64,000 nucleotides of DNA from a virus: positions 118,633 through 182,632 of the IMG/VR virus record IMGVR_UViG_3300031414_000008. One strand, 5' to 3'. The position numbers were made by a program, and so were the translations under genes. Below the pieces are notes generated by a model. The model was not told the DNA's origin. It made no database searches and saw only the letters and a list, made by a program, of their open reading frames with translations. Below are positions 6,733 to 48,535 of this stretch, in pieces. Every line of letters starts with the position of its first letter. Positions within the stretch are counted from its first letter, which is position 1.

Positions 6733-7920
6733 GTGATCCAAGAATACTATCTGCATATGTTCTGCGGGATAAACGGTGAGCTTGACCAGAACTCCGGTGC
6801 CGGTCGCCTCGCTATCGCTACCCTAATGGCAGGATACGGTCTGAATGCGACGACGAAGAAAGACCTGCAGTCCCGCGTCGATTGGGTGGTGACCCCCGGT
6901 TGCTTCCTGGGCCAGAAGGAGATGGCTCCGACGGACTACTACTGCCGTAACTTCCCGGAAGTTAAGTTCGCGGTCTCATTAGTGCCGTTCCGCAAGGTTA
7001 ACCGTACGATGAACTACCAGCTGGACTGGTCGGTTCTGGACCACGAGGAGTGGGACTGGAAGATCACCTCTCCGGTGTGGATCAACTTAGCGAAGATCTA
7101 CTGGCTCGGCTACTTCCTGTTTGGCCGCAACGTTCTTCCGGAGACGGTGATCGCCACGATGCGGGCTAAGTTCTCCCCTCGCTGTGATGATGCTCAGGAT
7201 AAGCGTCGCAACCTGAAGAGTCCGTTCGTGATGCAGTTCCTGAAGAACATCGGAGTTCCACTGCATGATGTCCGTCCGGCTCACCTCTTCTCGAACTCCC
7301 AGGACGATCTGGCACGCCACTTAGTCTTCGGGTCTCTGGCGATCGGCATGAACTGGTCGGAGAACATCCCGGGCTACTACGCGATGGGTGCGATGGTGAA
7401 GGACTTGGTGCCGGCGGGCACGGCGTTCAACCAACTGACCCCGCACTTAGCTCCGTTCGCCGAGGCCCAGTGCGGTCGCTTCCAGAACGGTCTGTTCCCA
7501 CTGCTGCAGCCGAGCTACTACCCGCTATCCATGGGCAACCCGGCGATCCCGTCTTCACCGAGCCGTGTGCCAACGAATGGCCGTGACATGCTGCCGCTCC
7601 TGTGGTGTAACAACCAGCGTTCTCCGCAGGAAGAAGCGAACACTCACTACGTCCAGGTCCGCGGCACCGAGATCAACTCCGAGTACTTCTCCTCGAACCG
7701 TCAGATGTGGCTCACCGCCGCCCTGCTGTGGGAGTACTACTTGATGCTGACCGGTCGCACGCTCTTCCAGATCGAACTCCTGGTGGAAGCTCGCCGGGCC
7801 CAGAACTGGACCGTGGATGACTTGAAGGAATCCTTGATCTACCTGAGCCCGTGCAACGCGAAGAACTCCTCTGTGGCCCAGATCGTTCGCTTCCATTTAG
7901 AGCGTCAGAATCAGGTATAA
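6733..7920 (+). CDS. hypothetical protein (395 aa)
   Basis: long ORF, aaggag RBS, phage-like codon usage; no family recognised. Confidence 0.85.
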   Translation: MIQEYYLHMFCGINGELDQNSGAGRLAIATLMAGYGLNATTKKDLQSRVDWVVTPGCFLGQKEMAPTDYYCRNFPEVKFAVSLVPFRKVNRTMNYQLDWSVLDHEEWDWKITSPVWINLAKIYWLGYFLFGRNVLPETVIATMRAKFSPRCDDAQDKRRNLKSPFVMQFLKNIGVPLHDVRPAHLFSNSQDDLARHLVFGSLAIGMNWSENIPGYYAMGAMVKDLVPAGTAFNQLTPHLAPFAEAQCGRFQNGLFPLLQPSYYPLSMGNPAIPSSPSRVPTNGRDMLPLLWCNNQRSPQEEANTHYVQVRGTEINSEYFSSNRQMWLTAALLWEYYLMLTGRTLFQIELLVEARRAQNWTVDDLKESLIYLSPCNAKNSSVAQIVRFHLERQNQV

Positions 7921-7950
7921 GTAAGGTACACAAACAAAAGGAGTTTTCTC

Positions 7951-8574
7951 ATGCAAGTCACCGTTAATGTTGTCAGTCTTCCTCCCGTCGTCGTTGACGC
8001 TTTCAATGACATGCTCACAGCAAGTGTCACCCCGATCTTCAATGAAGATGCCCTCCCGTCTAAAGCCCAGGCCGGTCTGCTCGCTGCTGCGTACTTCGCG
8101 TGCCAGAAGTCGATCTGTATGAAGTTCATGCCAGAGCTCGAATCGGCGGGGATGTTCAAAGATGTCGTCTCGATCGACTACCCCGGGTTCAAGTGGAACC
8201 GTGGCCTGAAGTTCTGCTACGCGGTCGACATGATCATCCCGTCCTTGGTCAAGACCATGGCGGAACTGATCGTGCAGGGCCGTGATTTCTCAGGCTTCAT
8301 GGACTTCCTCGAAGCGTGGGAAGGGATCAAGATTGACAAAGCTACCGGTGAATTGCTTGAGCATATCGAAGGCCCGGCGGCACGGCGTCTCGAAGAGCAT
8401 GCTCTGGGCCTGTGCAAGGCGAACTGCAGTCTGATGGTCGGTGAGACACCTACTATCATCCGCCGCGTCTTGAATAACGTGAAGGCAGCCGTCGAAGTCG
8501 GTTCTGAGACGCCTCTGGACTGCCTGGTCCATGACATGGAGTACCTGGTGCCGAACCTGGTAATCGAACTGTGA
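7951..8574 (+). CDS. hypothetical protein
   Basis: aaggag RBS and promoter motif at 7914. Confidence 0.8.
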   Translation: MQVTVNVVSLPPVVVDAFNDMLTASVTPIFNEDALPSKAQAGLLAAAYFACQKSICMKFMPELESAGMFKDVVSIDYPGFKWNRGLKFCYAVDMIIPSLVKTMAELIVQGRDFSGFMDFLEAWEGIKIDKATGELLEHIEGPAARRLEEHALGLCKANCSLMVGETPTIIRRVLNNVKAAVEVGSETPLDCLVHDMEYLVPNLVIEL

Positions 8575-42155: not shown

Positions 42156-43754
42156 TTATTCGGTATACTTGAAGTCGCCTTCAAGGTACTGGTACGCAAC
42201 GTGTGCGAAGACTACGGAGTGCATCCAGTCATCCGGTTCATCCGGGTGGTGACGGTACACACGACGGCCTACGCCGGTCTCTTCTTCGAAGACGTTCAGG
42301 GCATCGGTCCAGTAACCCTCAGTGATTGCCCAAGATGGACACATGAAGCGGTCCGGACCGATACGCCATTTCATCATCACGTTATCGATCGCCTGAGAGC
42401 GGTCAGCTGCCAGGAACTGGCCCTGCTGGTCCCAACGTAAACGTACCTTTGCTGCCACGTAGTTTACCATGATCACTTTATCATGTCCCAGCTCTTGTTG
42501 CATCAGCTGGCCCTGCAGAACGCCCACCCCGCGGTCAGAGCCGATGACGGCACAGTTCCACTTACGGGCTAAAAGACAGACGTCACGGACCTGCTCGAGG
42601 ATGTGGATCCCTTGCATCTTCTTCGATTCGAGCATGTAGCAGCGGCCGTAGCCGTCATACCCGAGGACGGTTGCCACGGTGTAGGACTTCACGCCACCGG
42701 TAACGGACCAGTCGACACCGAGCACGGTACGGGTGATCGTCGGGGCAATCTTCTTCCAGACCGGATCGGAGAAGTCGGTAGGGGACGCCCAGGACTTCCA
42801 CTCTTCGTTACAGCACTTCATGGCTTCCGCCATAGAGAGTGAACGACCGGAGAGGTCAGTGGCAAGCCCGAAGACTTCGTTCGCCAGCGTCGCTGGGGTG
42901 TAGAGGCCGCCTTCCTGAGCCTGTTTCACTTTATCGATGAGACGGGCCCACTTCTTCGGCTTGCAGTTATCGCCGATGATGATCTGCGGTAGGTGGAAGC
43001 CTACTTTATCCCTGATGTGCGGGTTGGTCGCCACCCACTGGCCGTCGGCCGGATGGACAGGCTTCAAGCATTTATCACAGGACGGACCGTGCGGCTGACA
43101 GATACGCACACACTTCTCGTACGTGTCCGGGATAATCCAGTGGCCACAGTGCGGGCACTTGCTGACCCACTCCAGACGGTTGGTACGCAGCCAGAGTTGC
43201 TCCAGGGTGTTCGCCGTGGACTTGGACGTGCCGGCCAGGACCTTCAGTGCATATTCGGAGGCGTTGAGGATTTCGAAGATCGGTGGTAGTGCGTCGTAGG
43301 ACACGTCCTGGACTTCGTCTACGGTTAACAGATCGGCCATCAGACCACGGATACGGTCGGCGTCAGATTCGGTCTGGGCGTACGACAGGTAGATCTTTGA
43401 TTTGTTCGCCAGTGTCTTCTCGAAGACGTTGCTCGGGTCGTTTGAACGACGGAAGTATTTCTTCACGAGCGGGCTCTCCAGGAAGGCATCAAGGTAGGCG
43501 TTCGAGAAACGCTTCGCCTGGATCTGGAAAGGTGCGATGTACAGGGAGTTGAAGTACGGGCGACCGATCGACTTGGACACTAAGCGTCCGCCGAGGGATA
43601 CCGACTTCCCGATCTGACGACCGGCTTTGAAGACCATCAGGTCCGGGTCGACGTCATAGATAGCGGTAAAGGGCTTATAATCCGTGAAGTTGATCGGTTT
43701 ACCCTTCAACTCCAGGAGAGCCGCCGCTAACTGACTCGAAGTAGCTTTTTTCAT
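42156..43754 (-). CDS. terL: terminase large subunit (GpA-like)
   Basis: KAGRQIGKS Walker A, LTVDEVQD Walker B, GTSKS, CPHCG Zn ribbon, LGVDW nuclease, PDDWMHS. Confidence 0.9.
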   Translation of the reverse strand: MKKATSSQLAAALLELKGKPINFTDYKPFTAIYDVDPDLMVFKAGRQIGKSVSLGGRLVSKSIGRPYFNSLYIAPFQIQAKRFSNAYLDAFLESPLVKKYFRRSNDPSNVFEKTLANKSKIYLSYAQTESDADRIRGLMADLLTVDEVQDVSYDALPPIFEILNASEYALKVLAGTSKSTANTLEQLWLRTNRLEWVSKCPHCGHWIIPDTYEKCVRICQPHGPSCDKCLKPVHPADGQWVATNPHIRDKVGFHLPQIIIGDNCKPKKWARLIDKVKQAQEGGLYTPATLANEVFGLATDLSGRSLSMAEAMKCCNEEWKSWASPTDFSDPVWKKIAPTITRTVLGVDWSVTGGVKSYTVATVLGYDGYGRCYMLESKKMQGIHILEQVRDVCLLARKWNCAVIGSDRGVGVLQGQLMQQELGHDKVIMVNYVAAKVRLRWDQQGQFLAADRSQAIDNVMMKWRIGPDRFMCPSWAITEGYWTDALNVFEEETGVGRRVYRHHPDEPDDWMHSVVFAHVAYQYLEGDFKYTE

Positions 43755-43794
43755 GAATTTCTCCTGTTAGGTATTCAATATTTTAAAATACCCT

Positions 43795-43815
43795 GGTATA
43801 ATAACCCTGGTATAG
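43795..43815 (+). promoter_or_regulatory. tandem promoter motifs upstream of Ubl gene
   Basis: direct repeat accctggtata x2 (ggtataa at 43795, ggtatag at 43809). Confidence 0.65.
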
Positions 43816-43860
43816 AGACGCTATGCCACACAAACTAACTTACTTAAAAGGAAAGTCTAA

Positions 43861-44061
43861 ATGTCTACATCTATTCGTTCTACCGTTGTTCACATTCCTG
43901 GTCGCGACGCACGTACTCTGGACGGTATCATCATGACCAAAGAAGAAGCGGCACGTCAGTTCGATTCTGCGTTCCAGACTTCCAGCATGAATTCCCGCGA
44001 AGAAGTGATTGACGGCGTACGTCACATCTACTTCGAACGCCGCACCGGTACTAAAGGCTAA
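43861..44061 (+). CDS. prokaryotic ubiquitin-like protein (PRTRC protein C-like)
   Basis: 66 aa, beta-grasp-like pattern, C-terminus F..RTGTKG; first gene of E2/JAB/E1 cluster. Confidence 0.85.
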   Translation: MSTSIRSTVVHIPGRDARTLDGIIMTKEEAARQFDSAFQTSSMNSREEVIDGVRHIYFERRTGTKG

Positions 44062-44081
44062 GCTTTAGCTTAGTCGGAAGG

Positions 44082-44110
44082 AGGCTCCCAATGGGAGCCT
44101 TTTCTTTTTT
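44082..44110 (+). terminator. Rho-independent terminator after Ubl
   Basis: aggctccc-aat-gggagcct followed by long T-tract. Confidence 0.88.
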
Positions 44111-44127
44111 TAGTTAAGGGAGGCTTC

Positions 44128-45099
44128 ATGTCTTATCCCCTTTGGAATAGCAATACCACTGTATTCCACGAGCTTACCCCTGAACGACTGACCTCCGCGG
44201 TAGAGCTCAAAGATCTCATCCACACAGAAGGTCTCAAGGCTCGAATCGCTAGCGATGGCAGTCTGGCGGTTACCCAAGACCTCTCCACGGAGATTGATGC
44301 TCTGGGTGGCGCCGAGACGGAGGCCAACCTTCGTCAGCTTCAGCAGTGGATGAACAACATGCGTAACCTGATGACGTACACTGTGCGTGCTCAGTTCGCT
44401 GCAGGAATCGCCCCGTTCGTTCAATCCGGAAACCGCTCCGTTGAGTCCGGCCTGCGTAACCTGAACCTCGGCGTGCCTAACATGCTGGGTTTCATCCGCG
44501 GCTTCATGGGCAAGGATATCAAACATCCGGTGAAGTTTCTAGGCCTCAGTGCATCGACGACGGATCACGGCCGTGACCCTGACTTCTTGTACACGGACGA
44601 ACAGACCGGAACCTACCATACGCTACAGACGCTCGGCGAGAACCAAGCGTGGCCGGTGTGGAGTACATACCTCGAGGATACTCCTAGCCTTCGCCGCTAT
44701 ATTCGCTACGTCGATCATCTGGCCAAGCGTTACGGTATGCGTTTCGTGTACTGTCCGAAGCAGTTCAACCACATGGATGAGCTTGGCGTGCCGGCCCGTC
44801 CGGAGTGGATTCAGCAGCACGGCCAGGTCGTTCGCCGAGTGCAGTCCACGCGCTACGCCGTCCTGTTCGTTTCGCTCGCCTTTGACTACGACACCTTCAA
44901 AGACCTCACGGTTCTGGAAGTGGAGTCTCAACCGGGGCAGCGTCCGCGTCAGGCAGCACAGATGGATTACGGCCCAATCTTCGTGGATAACCTCCCGTCG
45001 ATTGCCCGCGTCATTAACACCATCGGAGCATTCCCTCCATGCAAGATCTATTTCAAAGACTATCGGAACTCCGCGAGATCGTCTCAAGCGGCCCAGTAG
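44128..45099 (+). CDS. hypothetical protein in Ubl cassette
   Basis: 323 aa, ggagg RBS; no family recognised. Confidence 0.8.
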   Translation: MSYPLWNSNTTVFHELTPERLTSAVELKDLIHTEGLKARIASDGSLAVTQDLSTEIDALGGAETEANLRQLQQWMNNMRNLMTYTVRAQFAAGIAPFVQSGNRSVESGLRNLNLGVPNMLGFIRGFMGKDIKHPVKFLGLSASTTDHGRDPDFLYTDEQTGTYHTLQTLGENQAWPVWSTYLEDTPSLRRYIRYVDHLAKRYGMRFVYCPKQFNHMDELGVPARPEWIQQHGQVVRRVQSTRYAVLFVSLAFDYDTFKDLTVLEVESQPGQRPRQAAQMDYGPIFVDNLPSIARVINTIGAFPPCKIYFKDYRNSARSSQAAQ

Positions 45100-45281
45100 T
45101 CCTGCGTGCCCTGGACGAGAAGTTGAAGTCGGTCAGTACGCCGGCTGAGGCCATGATGATTCTGCAGAACCTCAACTTCAACATCACGCGTCCAGCCCCT
45201 CGTGTGAACAACAATTCACGACAGATGAACTTTGACTTCAGCACCATGCGTGGGGTCAACACAGGGAGAACCTTCGTATGA
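45039..45281 (+). CDS. small hypothetical in Ubl cassette
   Basis: 80 aa, ATGA overlap with the E2 gene; start uncertain. Confidence 0.5.
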   Translation: MQDLFQRLSELREIVSSGPVVLRALDEKLKSVSTPAEAMMILQNLNFNITRPAPRVNNNSRQMNFDFSTMRGVNTGRTFV

Positions 45282-46042
45282 GTAATAACCAAGGGATGAC
45301 GGTCACCATCTTCCCTACGCACGTCCGCGTGCCGAATGGGTTGGGTGCCTTCAAGAACGTGTCACTGCAGGATTTCACTAACGAAATCTCCCGCGTTCAG
45401 GCCGGCCAGGAGCAGCAGCAGGCTCCGAAGCTGTCCTTCCGTTTGCCGAACGAAGCGGTGTCTGTTCGCTACAACCAGCACGAACTCGAAATCCTGATGT
45501 ACTTTGAAGAAGCCAAACGGGAAATCCGTTACGGTAACCGCAAGTACACCATCCCGTTCCCGGCGACAGTGATCAAAGTGACGCTGAAGTCGAACGGTAA
45601 GGGTGGCTGGACGGTAGAGGGCGTGAAGTGGCTGTGCACCGACTACAAGGAAGATGAAGTCCCGAACCTGTCCAACTGGGAATTCATCAACCGCAACTAC
45701 AACAACCACCTGTGGACGCTCCCGTTCCCGAACCAGTATGGCGACGGCGGCATGTGCACCGGTGCGAACTCCTACCGTTCGCTGTACCAGTATGACCTGC
45801 GTGGTCTGAACGAGCTGTTCTACACGATCCTCGTGGCATCTCCGTTCAACAACGACCTGTGGGGCTACGGTAACCGTGGTGTTCGCATGGAAGGTAACGG
45901 ACCGGGTGACTGGTTCACTCAGCTGTCCCGTCTGGATAAGTATCCTTGGCACCTGATGCCAGGTTATCCACAGAACGGTCAAACTCCTGTAACTCAAACT
46001 GAAGCACCTGAAGAGGAAGATGAAGATGACGAAGAAGAATAA
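45278..46042 (+). CDS. prokaryotic E2-like ubiquitin-conjugating protein (Prok-E2 family D / PRTRC protein B-like)
   Basis: IPFP..V...; LW.LPFPNQYGDGGMCTG with the putative catalytic Cys; SPFN.DL; acidic tail. Confidence 0.82.
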   Translation: MSNNQGMTVTIFPTHVRVPNGLGAFKNVSLQDFTNEISRVQAGQEQQQAPKLSFRLPNEAVSVRYNQHELEILMYFEEAKREIRYGNRKYTIPFPATVIKVTLKSNGKGGWTVEGVKWLCTDYKEDEVPNLSNWEFINRNYNNHLWTLPFPNQYGDGGMCTGANSYRSLYQYDLRGLNELFYTILVASPFNNDLWGYGNRGVRMEGNGPGDWFTQLSRLDKYPWHLMPGYPQNGQTPVTQTEAPEEEDEDDEEE

Positions 46043-47273
46043 TGGCATCCTGGACCTGGTTCCGTTCATGTCCGCCCTGCTTACTGAAGATGCCTTCTTC
46101 GCCGGTGGCGACGTGCTTCAGAACCCGGAAGTGTACGTGCTGGGTAATGATGGCGCCCTGTACCAGTTCCACCAGTTCTCCATGGGCCGTTCAGCGATGA
46201 CCAAGATCTCTGACACGCCTATCCGTACCAACGGCGGCAAGTCCCTGCTGAAGCCGTACATGAAGCCGCTGGTCGAAGACAAGAAGATTCCGCTGGAGAT
46301 GCTGAACGATATCGTTGAGTTCTTCCGCCAGGTCATGAAAATGACCACGTCTTCTGGTTTCGGCCACGGTGACTATGAAGCGATGGCTCACATCGTCTGG
46401 AACAAGACGAAGAAAGAGTACCGTGTAGCGATTCCTAAGCAGAAAGTGGCGAAAGCATCCGTTACCTATAACTGGGATCACGTGGCAGCGGACGAAGAGG
46501 TTATCCTCGACATCCACTCTCACAACTCCATGGACGCGTTCTTCTCCGGTACCGATGAGCGTGATGACGCGACCTACGTGGGTATCTCTGGCGTCGCCGG
46601 TAAGCTGAACACCGACAACCACAAACTGATCTGGCGCTTCAACGCGTACAAATCTAAAGTGGTCATGAAGCTGGAGGACATCTTCGATGCGCCGCCGGTA
46701 AAGGAGGAGAGCCCGGTGGTCAAGGCGTGGATGGAGAACGTCGAGGTTCTGACTTATCAGCGTCCGTCCTACCCGGGCTACAGCCCCGCCCTGGGCGGCA
46801 GCAAAGTATATGGCGGTGGGTCACGCTCCCTCGCTGGCTCCGACAAGTTTCTCGAGCGTGATGAACGCGACGACTCCTGGAACGGTCAGCGTACCCAACG
46901 GGAGAGCAACTGGAATGCCCGATTTCGCGGAGAGAACGAGGAAGGGGTCACGGCGAGTGCTCGGACCACGCGATCTCAAGCGTCGGTAGACATCCTGGGT
47001 GCAGATGAAGGCACCTACGGTATTGGCCTGATTCACGAACTGGCGGACGAACCCTTTCAGACCTGGGACGAAACCGCTGATGAACTCGTCGCTTCTGTCT
47101 ACAGTGAGAATGACGACGAGCTGAACGCTGCCGTGGGCAAACGCTTACTGGAATACGTTGCGGATCCGGAAATCCTCTTCCAAGAGGGTGTCTTCCTGGC
47201 CTCCTCCGCTCTGGAAGCCCGTAAAGTGGTTGCCCGTCTCAACAAAGATTTTGATCTCGATCGAGGTATTTAA
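46020..47273 (+). CDS. JAB/MPN+ metallo-isopeptidase (PRTRC protein A-like) with C-terminal extension
   Basis: YEAMAHIVW, LDIHSHNSMDAFFSGTDERDD (E...HSH...S..D JAMM motif). Confidence 0.9.
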   Translation: MKMTKKNNGILDLVPFMSALLTEDAFFAGGDVLQNPEVYVLGNDGALYQFHQFSMGRSAMTKISDTPIRTNGGKSLLKPYMKPLVEDKKIPLEMLNDIVEFFRQVMKMTTSSGFGHGDYEAMAHIVWNKTKKEYRVAIPKQKVAKASVTYNWDHVAADEEVILDIHSHNSMDAFFSGTDERDDATYVGISGVAGKLNTDNHKLIWRFNAYKSKVVMKLEDIFDAPPVKEESPVVKAWMENVEVLTYQRPSYPGYSPALGGSKVYGGGSRSLAGSDKFLERDERDDSWNGQRTQRESNWNARFRGENEEGVTASARTTRSQASVDILGADEGTYGIGLIHELADEPFQTWDETADELVASVYSENDDELNAAVGKRLLEYVADPEILFQEGVFLASSALEARKVVARLNKDFDLDRGI

Positions 47274-48313
47274 TGTTTACCTACACCAATCGCCAGATGG
47301 TTACTAACGCGGTGATTGTAGGTTGTGGCGGGACTGGTTCCCGCCTTCTGCCTATGCTCTCGCAGTTGATGTCCCGTGGTAAATGGAACGACATGGTCCC
47401 GACGATCACCCTGATCGATGGCGACGAAGTTGAAGTGAAGAACCTGGCCCGCCAGAACTTCATTAGCGACGATGTCAGTCGTAACAAAGCGGAGTGCTTG
47501 GCGGAACGCTACGGCGGTGCCTTCGAGATTCCAACAGTTGCGATTCCGCAGTTCTTCCCAACGAACGCCCAGTCGATGCAACGCTGGCTGCAGTCTAACG
47601 TGCCGGAATCTATGAAGCGCCTGGTGGCAGACCGTCCTGCGGTCTTCTTCCTGTGTGTGGATAACATGAAGGCCCGCTATGCCATCATCCAGTCGATCCT
47701 GTACGCGACCATCCAGACCGGGATCGAGCACTTCATCGTGGACGCCGGTAACGAGAACACCTTCGGTCAGGCCCGCATCTTCTCCTCTCGCATCGTTCCG
47801 GATCGTGAGTACGAGAACGTGGATCTGGAAGACATGGCTCGTCTGGTGCCGAAAGGCTCTGAAGGTATTCCGGTACCGTACCTGCCATGCCCGATTGGTC
47901 AGTATCTGCGTGCCTCTGGCTATCAGGGTAACCCGGATGCATCCTGTGCGGACCTCGAGCAGACGGCGGCAGTGAACGCGATCATGGCAATGTCCATGTT
48001 CTCAATCATGCAGAACATCTACATGGGTCTGCCGCTGAAGGTCGAGACGTGGTTCTACGATATCCATAACGGTAACGACCAGACGCGTCTGAACCAGAGC
48101 TGGATGCGTGAAATCATGACGGGTAATCAGTATCGCGTGCCGAAGGACGAGAAGACGGATGCGTATCCGGTTTCTATCCAGGGGCTGCGTACGGTACAGG
48201 GTATGCCAGGCGTAAGCTTCTGGCCGGAGATTCAGAAGTCGATTAAGAAGATGCTTAAAGAAGGGAAACTCGAACGAGTCTCCCCTGAGATGGCTGAGAT
48301 CTTAGGACTCTAA
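47273..48313 (+). CDS. ThiF/E1-like ubiquitin-activating enzyme (PRTRC ThiF-like)
   Basis: VIVGCGGTGS, IDGDEVE.KNL.RQNF, KAE.LA.RY, CVDN..AR, DAGNE..FGQ, SCAD. Confidence 0.93.
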   Translation: MFTYTNRQMVTNAVIVGCGGTGSRLLPMLSQLMSRGKWNDMVPTITLIDGDEVEVKNLARQNFISDDVSRNKAECLAERYGGAFEIPTVAIPQFFPTNAQSMQRWLQSNVPESMKRLVADRPAVFFLCVDNMKARYAIIQSILYATIQTGIEHFIVDAGNENTFGQARIFSSRIVPDREYENVDLEDMARLVPKGSEGIPVPYLPCPIGQYLRASGYQGNPDASCADLEQTAAVNAIMAMSMFSIMQNIYMGLPLKVETWFYDIHNGNDQTRLNQSWMREIMTGNQYRVPKDEKTDAYPVSIQGLRTVQGMPGVSFWPEIQKSIKKMLKEGKLERVSPEMAEILGL

Positions 48314-48535
48314 GTCTACGCGGCGTTCTCGTGTAGCTTTGTCGGGGGAGTCGGAAACGCTGAACACGGCGATTTCGCTTCCCTCGGCATTGTACATCTT
48401 GAGAATGCCAGACTTTTTATCCCATTGCCAAGAGCCTGTCGCGGCTGCTTGGAGTTCGGCCGTCACCTCGAGGCCTTTTTTTACATCGGTATGGATCAGC
48501 TCAAGCTTCGCCATAACGTCATCGATAGTTGCCAT
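48302..48535 (-). CDS. hypothetical virion protein
   Basis: 77 aa, aggag RBS, TAATG coupling. Confidence 0.7.
   Translation of the reverse strand: MATIDDVMAKLELIHTDVKKGLEVTAELQAAATGSWQWDKKSGILKMYNAEGSEIAVFSVSDSPDKATRERRVDLES

Follow-up and report, generated by a model that had tools for sequence, protein, structure and literature searches.

Why would a lytic-type myophage carry what looks like a complete ubiquitin-like protein (Ubl) conjugation system beside its terminase gene? The question is raised by a stretch of 64,000 nucleotides (hereafter the window) that makes up the final 64 kb of virus record IMGVR_UViG_3300031414_000008, a complete genome of 182,632 bp with direct terminal repeats, whose nearest named relative is Salmonella phage Arash (~75% nucleotide identity across the cassette and 95.5% protein identity in the terminase). 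At positions 43861-48313 of the window, six plus-strand open reading frames (ORFs) run divergently from the large terminase gene, with large minus-strand blocks flanking them on both sides. An earlier note, made from the DNA letters alone, had recognized Ubl, E2, JAB and E1 genes among them. The ORF list and residue positions confirm the six frames and every motif quoted, the minus-strand neighbor matches a terminase family, and all four components are upheld by family matches, homologues and fold models beyond motif coincidence. We conclude, in part by analogy, that the cassette probably encodes an E1-E2-Ubl conjugation cascade of PRTRC/class 6d type, in which JAB matures and removes the Ubl and two further proteins, p323 and p80, act as lineage-specific partners. 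Vertical inheritance within a lineage of Arash-like myophages is the best explanation for its presence.

Predicted catalytic components of the cassette

The E1 protein matches Pfam ThiF (3.1e-14; 53.2 bits against a gathering cut-off of 28.1). Its top NCBIfam match is PRTRC_ThiF (TIGR03736; 58.3 bits, 6.9e-16), under the equivalog cut-off of 144.75, and against a profile of 77 Burkholderiaceae PRTRC ThiF proteins it reaches 98.8% in hhalign. Besides its GCGGTGS motif, the protein holds R60/Q61, D130 and a conserved Cys225 within SCAD, and it ends in a C-terminal extension of ~80 aa. In alignment with the plasmid PRTRC ThiFs, the elements GxGGTG, DxD, N..RQ, K, VD(N), D.GN and the "SC" cysteine (Cys225) are invariant. 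The JAB protein likewise matches Pfam Prok-JAB (3.5e-7; 30.6 bits against a gathering cut-off of 25), has PRTRC_A (TIGR03735; 69.4 bits, 2.8e-19) as its sole NCBIfam match, under the equivalog cut-off of 101.8, and aligns with PRTRC_A at 98.3% in hhalign. Its JAMM motif is intact (E120, H166-x-H168-x7-S176-x2-D179) and is followed by a phage-specific C-terminal extension of ~200 aa, for which the Atlas gave no usable match; the phage JAB proteins show no clear sign of the Arg/Trp that is conserved in the JAB-N domain of class 6d. Judged by these alignments, E1 and JAB are homologous to PRTRC proteins without being members of the equivalog families.

The closest solved relatives of E1 are PDB entries 9EGB, 9EGC and 9EGD (E = 2e-4, residues 44-97 only), which contain a 264-265-aa "THIF-type NAD/FAD binding fold" protein in 7 or 14 chains per entry. 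These entries were considered as structures of PRTRC type and rejected, since the Cupriavidus PRTRC ThiF matches nothing in the PDB; a search with that protein found no solved structure of a PRTRC ThiF.

For the E2-like protein, transitive homology, profile-profile comparison and the predicted fold support a tentative placement as a divergent Prok-E2_D protein. Its family comprises 201 representative-level homologues, and among 64 phmmer homologues, 47 match Prok-E2_D (PF14460) and 22 match PRTRC_B (TIGR03737). The candidate catalytic Cys160 is invariant in the family alignment and lies within an HPN-like PN(x7)C loop, followed by an equally invariant Asn at Cys+4. The predicted model is confident and its fold matches are almost only UBC/E2 enzymes, with low Z.

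Table 1. Features of the cassette and its surroundings (positions in the window)
Feature	Position	Strand	Details
Large terminase	42156-43754	-	phrog_675, 1.4e-42; immediately upstream of cassette
Tandem promoter-like core	43790-43815	+	CTGGTATAA at 43793-43801, CTGGTATAG at 43807-43815
Ubl modifier	43861-44061	+	66 aa; C-terminus RTGTKG
Intrinsic terminator	44079-44113	+	11-bp stem, 3-nt loop, T-run; directly after Ubl gene
p323	44128-45099	+	323 aa
p80	45039-45281	+	80 aa
E2-like, divergent Prok-E2_D	45278-46042	+	254 aa; PFPNQYGDGGMCTG at residues 149-162; candidate catalytic Cys160 in PFPN(152)...C(160).G.N(164); acidic C-terminal tail
JAB	46020-47273	+	417 aa; HSHNSMDAFFSGTD at residues 166-179; start codon 46020 or 46026
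E1	47273-48313	+	346 aa; GCGGTGS 17-23, DGDEVEVKNLARQ 49-61, CVDN 128-131, SCAD 224-227

The modifier and its repeats

Structure prediction returned the folds that the earlier note expected, a beta-grasp model for the 66-aa protein and a UBC-like model for E2, both with fold matches of low Z. The flexible tail of the 66-aa model ends in Gly66, the last residue of the protein, so that the gene in the window encodes an uncapped, mature form. The TGTKG end resembles the GAKG of PRTRC_C and is invariant in every unit, even though identity over the remainder of the domain drops to ~35%; it holds even where E2 is only 30% identical. Profile-profile comparison, predicted fold and transitive homology support the identity of this protein as a Ubl.

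Relatives of the gene differ in the number of units that they encode. A single unit is found in the window, in Arash and in three IMG/VR contigs (L003-L005) as well as in the divergent contig L098. Contigs L006, L096 and L097 and database proteins P0177-P0180 have two head-to-tail units with a direct junction at ...RRTGTKG|A/S..., and the gene of Vibrio phage D69 codes for three that have linkers and end in the five-residue cap INYSK; the final unit of L097 carries the cap ND. The two L006 units differ at 28 of 192 nucleotides, with 21 synonymous codon differences and only 3 non-synonymous ones, the latter confined to the first five linker residues. Read from these codons, the L006 repeats are an old duplication with each unit apparently held to the same protein sequence, a polyubiquitin-like signature. 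Such conservation is expected if a peptidase releases identical functional monomers, and the poly-Ubl genes would thus give JAB a precursor-processing job beyond deconjugation.

Relationship to known Ubl systems

Class 6d, as defined by Iyer, Burroughs and Aravind in 2006 (PMC1779556), comprises five proteins: a Ubl that has Gly at its C-terminus, an alpha-helical protein described as rapidly diverging, an E2-like protein lacking the classical His, a JAB preceded by an N-terminal domain, and an E1-like protein. The PRTRC cassette corresponds to NCBIfam TIGR03734-03742, and our example, Cupriavidus oxalaticus plasmid NZ_CP032520, has the canonical order ParB-E-C-F-B-A-ThiF. Its C-F-B-A-ThiF portion runs collinear with the phage order Ubl-p323-p80-E2-JAB-E1. 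Both systems have a small putative Ubl with a ..G.KG end, a large fast-evolving protein, an E2-like protein apparently of the same superfamily (PRTRC_B), a conserved "SC" cysteine in E1 and carriage on mobile elements. The phage cassette differs in lacking ParB and protein E: ParB_N was absent from the whole 182.6-kb genome at E<=0.1, and no cassette protein matched PRTRC_E or ParB. It also differs in having Asn at Cys+4 of E2, where PRTRC_B often has His at Cys+5, in the additional C-terminal ~200 and ~80 aa of JAB and E1, in the extra 80-aa gene and in its carrier (here a lytic-type myophage). The Cupriavidus Ubl, too, is built differently, as a single unit closed by 5 residues of cap; the phage Ubl has no cap in the window and comes in multiple copies in relatives. 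The earlier assignment to the PRTRC type therefore stands as the best classification, given the top NCBIfam matches, the hhalign values of 98% for JAB and E1, the gene order and the shared F.R..G.KG C-terminus, but not as membership of the full PRTRC system, for which ParB and protein E are missing and the matches fall below equivalog cut-offs. On sequence grounds, the best-supported description is a divergent variant of class 6d/PRTRC, outside the NCBIfam equivalogs and neither Bil nor CBASS.

Two other classes of the same survey are now established as host systems: going by the row names used there, 6C corresponds to Type II Bil and 6E to Bub. For both, conjugation of Ubls to proteins has been demonstrated, and the Bil Ubl can be attached to a phage tail protein (PMC10557695, PMC11601603). 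Like the type I/II BilABCD systems (ISG15-like, class 6C), the phage cassette has four separate proteins in the order Ubl-E2-JAB-E1, and Bil Ubls also have a conserved Gly, are sometimes capped, sometimes contain up to three beta-grasp domains and are matured by JAB. In contrast, Bil is a host defense whose E1 combines a CYS domain with two kinds of adenylation domain, inactive and active, whereas the 346-aa phage E1 has a single domain, and the phage poly-Ubls are separable repeats sharing one tail rather than one multi-domain modifier. PADLOC gave no match for Ubl, p323, p80, E2 or JAB, and NCBIfam gave no Bil-type match for Ubl, E2 or JAB. The Rossmann segment of E1 (residues ~12-84) weakly matches the CBASS E1-E2 models of PADLOC; the phage system differs from CBASS in that its E1 and E2 are separate genes and in that the cassette has no CD-NTase. 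Eukaryotic polyubiquitin genes are similar in their head-to-tail units, each ending in the activation Gly and the last sometimes capped, and in units that are near-identical as proteins yet diverged at synonymous sites. The phage Ubl is, however, related to ubiquitin by fold only, has 1-3 units and is presumably processed by the JAMM peptidase of its own operon.

Further E2-JAB-E1 modules were found in Bacillus phage vB_BceM_WH1 (gp214-216), Acinetobacter phage ME3 (ME3_135/136/130) and Ralstonia phage YO105_4. Their E2 proteins were detected by profile (WH1 gp214, 7e-7; the YO105_4 ORF, 7e-4) or by Foldseek (a 294-aa ME3 protein, 1.2e-3), and in all three phages ThiF and JAB genes adjoin the E2-like gene. 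They differ from the cassette described here in belonging to separate phage lineages and in their gene spacing. Two of the ME3 genes are already annotated as "PRTRC system protein A" and ThiF. The former (1745-2179 of the ME3 sequence L090) is only 144 aa long, is followed closely by a tRNA-Met gene and breaks off within the HxH motif (...DIH), which would fit a truncated or inactive JAB or else a mis-called gene.

Conservation within the phage clade

The terminase clade was defined by a shared terminase at E<=1e-20 in the phage collection. The only sharers are Arash (95.5%) and Vibrio phages D69, D181 and D148 (54%), and the same four isolates carry the cassette. Seven IMG/VR contigs with the cassette extend this series to 30% E2 identity; in the most divergent of them, L097 and L098, a ~540-aa minus-strand ORF, presumed to be the terminase, lies directly upstream. 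Because every known member of the clade carries the cassette, conserved in place, it is ancestral to the clade rather than a recent insertion. The word "inserted" in the earlier description suggests a recent arrival and needs correcting, and its mention of jumbo phages needs adjusting, a genome of 182.6 kb being large but not strictly jumbo. A search with the D69 E2 as query found no viral contig. The cassette evolves faster than the terminase, with E1 identities of 78% and 36% against terminase identities of 95.5% and 54%. The ratio of non-synonymous to synonymous substitution rates (dN/dS) is 0.11-0.26 for all six genes, and all six are under purifying selection.

From p323 to E1, the successive junctions of the five enzyme and partner genes are a 61-nt overlap, ATGA, a 23-nt overlap and TAATG, and genes that overlap or abut in this way would form one translationally coupled operon. 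At 6968-7954 of the D69 sequence (L002), the deposited E1 starts at an internal ATG (7199), dropping the nucleotide-binding GxGxxG motif. The D69 frame is open right from the JAB stop at 6966, so that translation probably begins at a non-canonical codon or depends on coupling; a spurious 30-aa minus-strand ORF is annotated over the stretch.

The low dN/dS of p323 (0.21-0.26) and of the non-overlapping part of p80 (0.15-0.19) indicates that both are real genes. There are 27 homologues of p323 (38-100% identity), all inside the Arash-like clade, with conserved blocks including GNRSV, GKD(I/V)K.P, TGTYHTL, YLED(T/S)P..RRY(L/I)R(Y/F).D and CK(I/L)Y. The gene occupies the PRTRC_F slot but shows no similarity to PRTRC_F (P 0.05-0.11); hhalign found nothing against PRTRC_F, D69 p233, WH1 gp212/213 or the Nostoc or ME3 neighbors, apart from a weak signal in 38 C-terminal columns of the D69 p233 comparison (P=0.008). 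The F-slot proteins of the Cupriavidus and Vibrio plasmids fail to detect each other as well, which fits the "rapidly diverging" label of this position. The p80 gene shares its first 61 nt with the end of p323, is coupled to the E2 gene through ATGA and is kept in all Arash-like relatives. Its positional counterpart in D69 is a 95-aa protein whose N-terminus is alike by eye only, without search support, and comparison of p80 with PRTRC_E by hhalign gave nothing.

Promoter-like motif, terminator and expression

Upstream of the Ubl gene lie two copies of CTGGTATA(A/G), the first of which can also be read as an extended -10 element, TGGTATAAT. This promoter-like sequence is near-identical in Arash and in L003-L006, and both core copies and the terminator after the Ubl gene are kept in all relatives, with compensatory changes in the stem of L006. 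Genome-wide, GGTATAA occurs 41 times on the plus strand and once on the minus strand, against an expected ~8 per strand, and in 28 of the 41 plus-strand cases it lies no more than 120 nt upstream of a plus-strand ORF, with the consensus GGTATAAGtAa.gTGTAaa. Positions within the window include 1655, 6140, 8978, 10957, 17220, 23083, 43793, 51406 and 53515, and in the genome-wide count the minus-strand structural blocks have no such motif. No -35 element accompanies this motif class, which looks like a phage-specific promoter class for non-structural genes. The copy before the Ubl gene shares the core only, without the downstream GtAa.gTGTAaa of the 28-site consensus, and its promoter class is therefore uncertain and the argument from promoter class partial. 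In D69, the cassette continues a plus-strand block with ribonucleotide reductase (RNR) and a RecBCD inhibitor. The cassette is probably transcribed apart from the surrounding late operons and as part of the program of non-structural plus-strand genes, and the strong terminator that closes the Ubl unit would be in keeping with a modifier made in excess over its enzymes.

The one RNA-Seq library that contains the region, X8, was considered as evidence of transcription and set aside. It yielded contigs of 4.7-5.2 kb with flat depth that span genes on both strands; flat depth across both strands is most simply phage DNA or whole-genome signal and says nothing about transcription or the ratio of Ubl to enzymes. 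Within the C-terminal extension of JAB, the X8 strain has a 1-nt deletion at 47000 offset by a 1-nt insertion after 47003, and the frame is regained within one to two codons after the deletion.

Proposed mechanism and significance

The computed evidence covers gene content and catalytic residues, the predicted folds, homology and conservation, and selection on every gene and on the individual Ubl repeats; from it we infer each chemical step of the following scheme and the protein nature of the acceptor. The Ubl would be made from its own promoter-terminator unit, already mature in the window (Gly66) and as a di-Ubl, tri-Ubl or capped precursor in relatives, where the JAMM peptidase would cut after the invariant TGTKG. 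The ThiF-type E1 would then adenylate the C-terminal Gly and probably load it onto Cys225. Transfer to Cys160 of the UBC-fold E2 would follow, and from there the Ubl would pass onto amino groups of target proteins, from which JAB could also strip the tag. As lineage-specific partners, p323 and p80 may serve as a specificity factor, an E3-like protein or a substrate. Somewhat more tentatively, we propose that these large phages (Arash on Salmonella Typhimurium and D69-type phages on Vibrio) make a polyubiquitin-like precursor and, through an E1-E2-JAB cascade of their own, tag proteins of the host or the phage covalently during infection, a proposal to which we give slightly less than even odds of being right.

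Several results weigh against a conjugation cascade. The Ubl had no direct hidden Markov model match in Pfam or NCBIfam, PRTRC_C included; by hhalign, its probability against PRTRC_C was only 38% (P=3.4e-4, with F.R..G.KG aligned), and its fold matches had Z <=5.2 and were not significant by Foldseek against the PDB. The E2 of the window itself matched neither Prok-E2_D at E<=1 nor PRTRC_B at E<=10, reached a probability of only 18% in the hhalign comparison with PRTRC_B (P=1.4e-3; 171 columns, including an aligned Cys), and had fold matches with Z <=4.6 that were again not significant by Foldseek against the PDB. No match to p323 was obtained from Pfam, NCBIfam, PHROGs, PADLOC, a PDB profile search or the ESM Atlas, and no E3 or substrate could be identified. 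The E1 is a short single-domain ThiF-like enzyme of a type that also serves sulfur transfer and peptide modification, and its sequence matches include the structures of MccB and PaaA. Finally, our literature search found no experimental paper on class 6d/PRTRC, and conjugation is thus proposed by analogy.

Bacterial Ubl conjugation has so far been demonstrated only in host defense or stress systems (type II CBASS, Bil and Bub). Class 6d/PRTRC is the remaining predicted family and is carried by invading elements; its operon type was predicted in 2006 and PRTRC-like genes had been annotated in phage ME3, while a search of the literature on phage-encoded Ubl systems or Prok-E2 in phages found nothing relevant. 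If the proposed cascade operates, it would be a mobile-element counterpart of the Bil, Bub and CBASS Ubl defenses of hosts, and would provide the first functional handle on PRTRC/class 6d, uncharacterized on plasmids, integrative and conjugative elements (ICEs) and phages since 2006. The clade offers a compact, ParB-free version in culturable isolates, and its 1-, 2- and 3-unit modifier forms are a ready peptidase assay. The targets would reveal whether the system is used offensively, for host takeover or anti-defense, or in assembly of the phage itself, and knowing them would probably account for the plasmid systems as well.

Alternative functions

Use in the phage's own morphogenesis would explain why the cassette sits between terminase and tail/baseplate genes. 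Under this explanation, Ubl and JAB, with E1 and E2, would modify or chaperone virion or packaging proteins. The position next to the terminase and inside minus-strand structural blocks is kept even at 30% identity, a Ubl and a JAB are proposed to take part in lambdoid tail assembly (lambda I and K; PMC1779556), and Bil attaches its Ubl to a tail protein. The homologues of E2 and E1 in Arash are, moreover, annotated as "structural protein" from virion mass spectrometry. However, the Arash "structural proteome" consists of 116 proteins including ribonucleotide reductase, and so shows expression rather than virion membership. The cassette also lies on the opposite strand from the structural blocks, behind a promoter-like motif that is common to plus-strand non-structural genes and has no copy in those blocks, the D69 cassette extends the RNR and RecBCD inhibitor block, and the plasmid and ICE relatives have no virion at all. 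We consider a morphogenetic role unlikely.

The "structural" label in Arash was rejected as evidence of virion incorporation both for the breadth of that list and because the Gp numbers of the paper cannot be mapped cleanly. In GenBank OQ632216, the proteins so labeled are gp241, 242, 245, 246c and 248c, against Gp 242, 243, 244, 246, 247, 248, 249 and 251 in Table 2 of PMC10585845; no single offset reconciles the two numberings. The most abundant protein in the proteome is the RNA polymerase beta subunit.

Slightly less likely still is a role in counter-defense by interference alone, in which JAB, with the Ubl as bait or decoy, would strip Bil or CBASS cGAS conjugates, or E1 and E2 would titrate host Ubls, without any targets of the system's own being needed. 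Host Bil and type II CBASS do depend on JAB-reversible conjugation, relatives of the cassette reside on invading elements (plasmids/ICEs and phages), and the weak resemblance of the E1 Rossmann region to CBASS E1-E2 models would fit. Yet a stand-alone JAB would suffice for this purpose, whereas purifying selection in the phages maintains E1, E2 with its invariant Cys, and a strongly conserved, sometimes multi-copy Ubl, and PADLOC has no Bil-like match for Ubl, E2 or JAB.

Least probable is sulfur-carrier or other non-protein chemistry, whether through a ThiF/ThiS- or MoeB/MoaD-like thiocarboxylate (for a cofactor, tRNA or DNA) or through an MccB-like C-terminal modification: the short single-domain E1, the ThiF/MoeB models, MccB and PaaA among its matches and MoaD among the fold matches of the Ubl are in keeping with it, but an invariant-Cys E2, a JAMM peptidase and poly-Ubl genes are foreign to sulfur-relay systems, the top family matches are to PRTRC rather than to ThiF/MoeB equivalogs, and the 182.6-kb genome has neither a Rhodanese nor a cysteine desulfurase (Aminotran_5), although host donors could stand in.

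Occurrence in public metagenomes

Near-identical strains, with 95-100% identity over window positions 43700-48400, were present in public phyllosphere, soil, food and plant metagenomes from 12 studies. The habitats of these runs hint at an enterobacterial host from plants or soil, not a clinical host.

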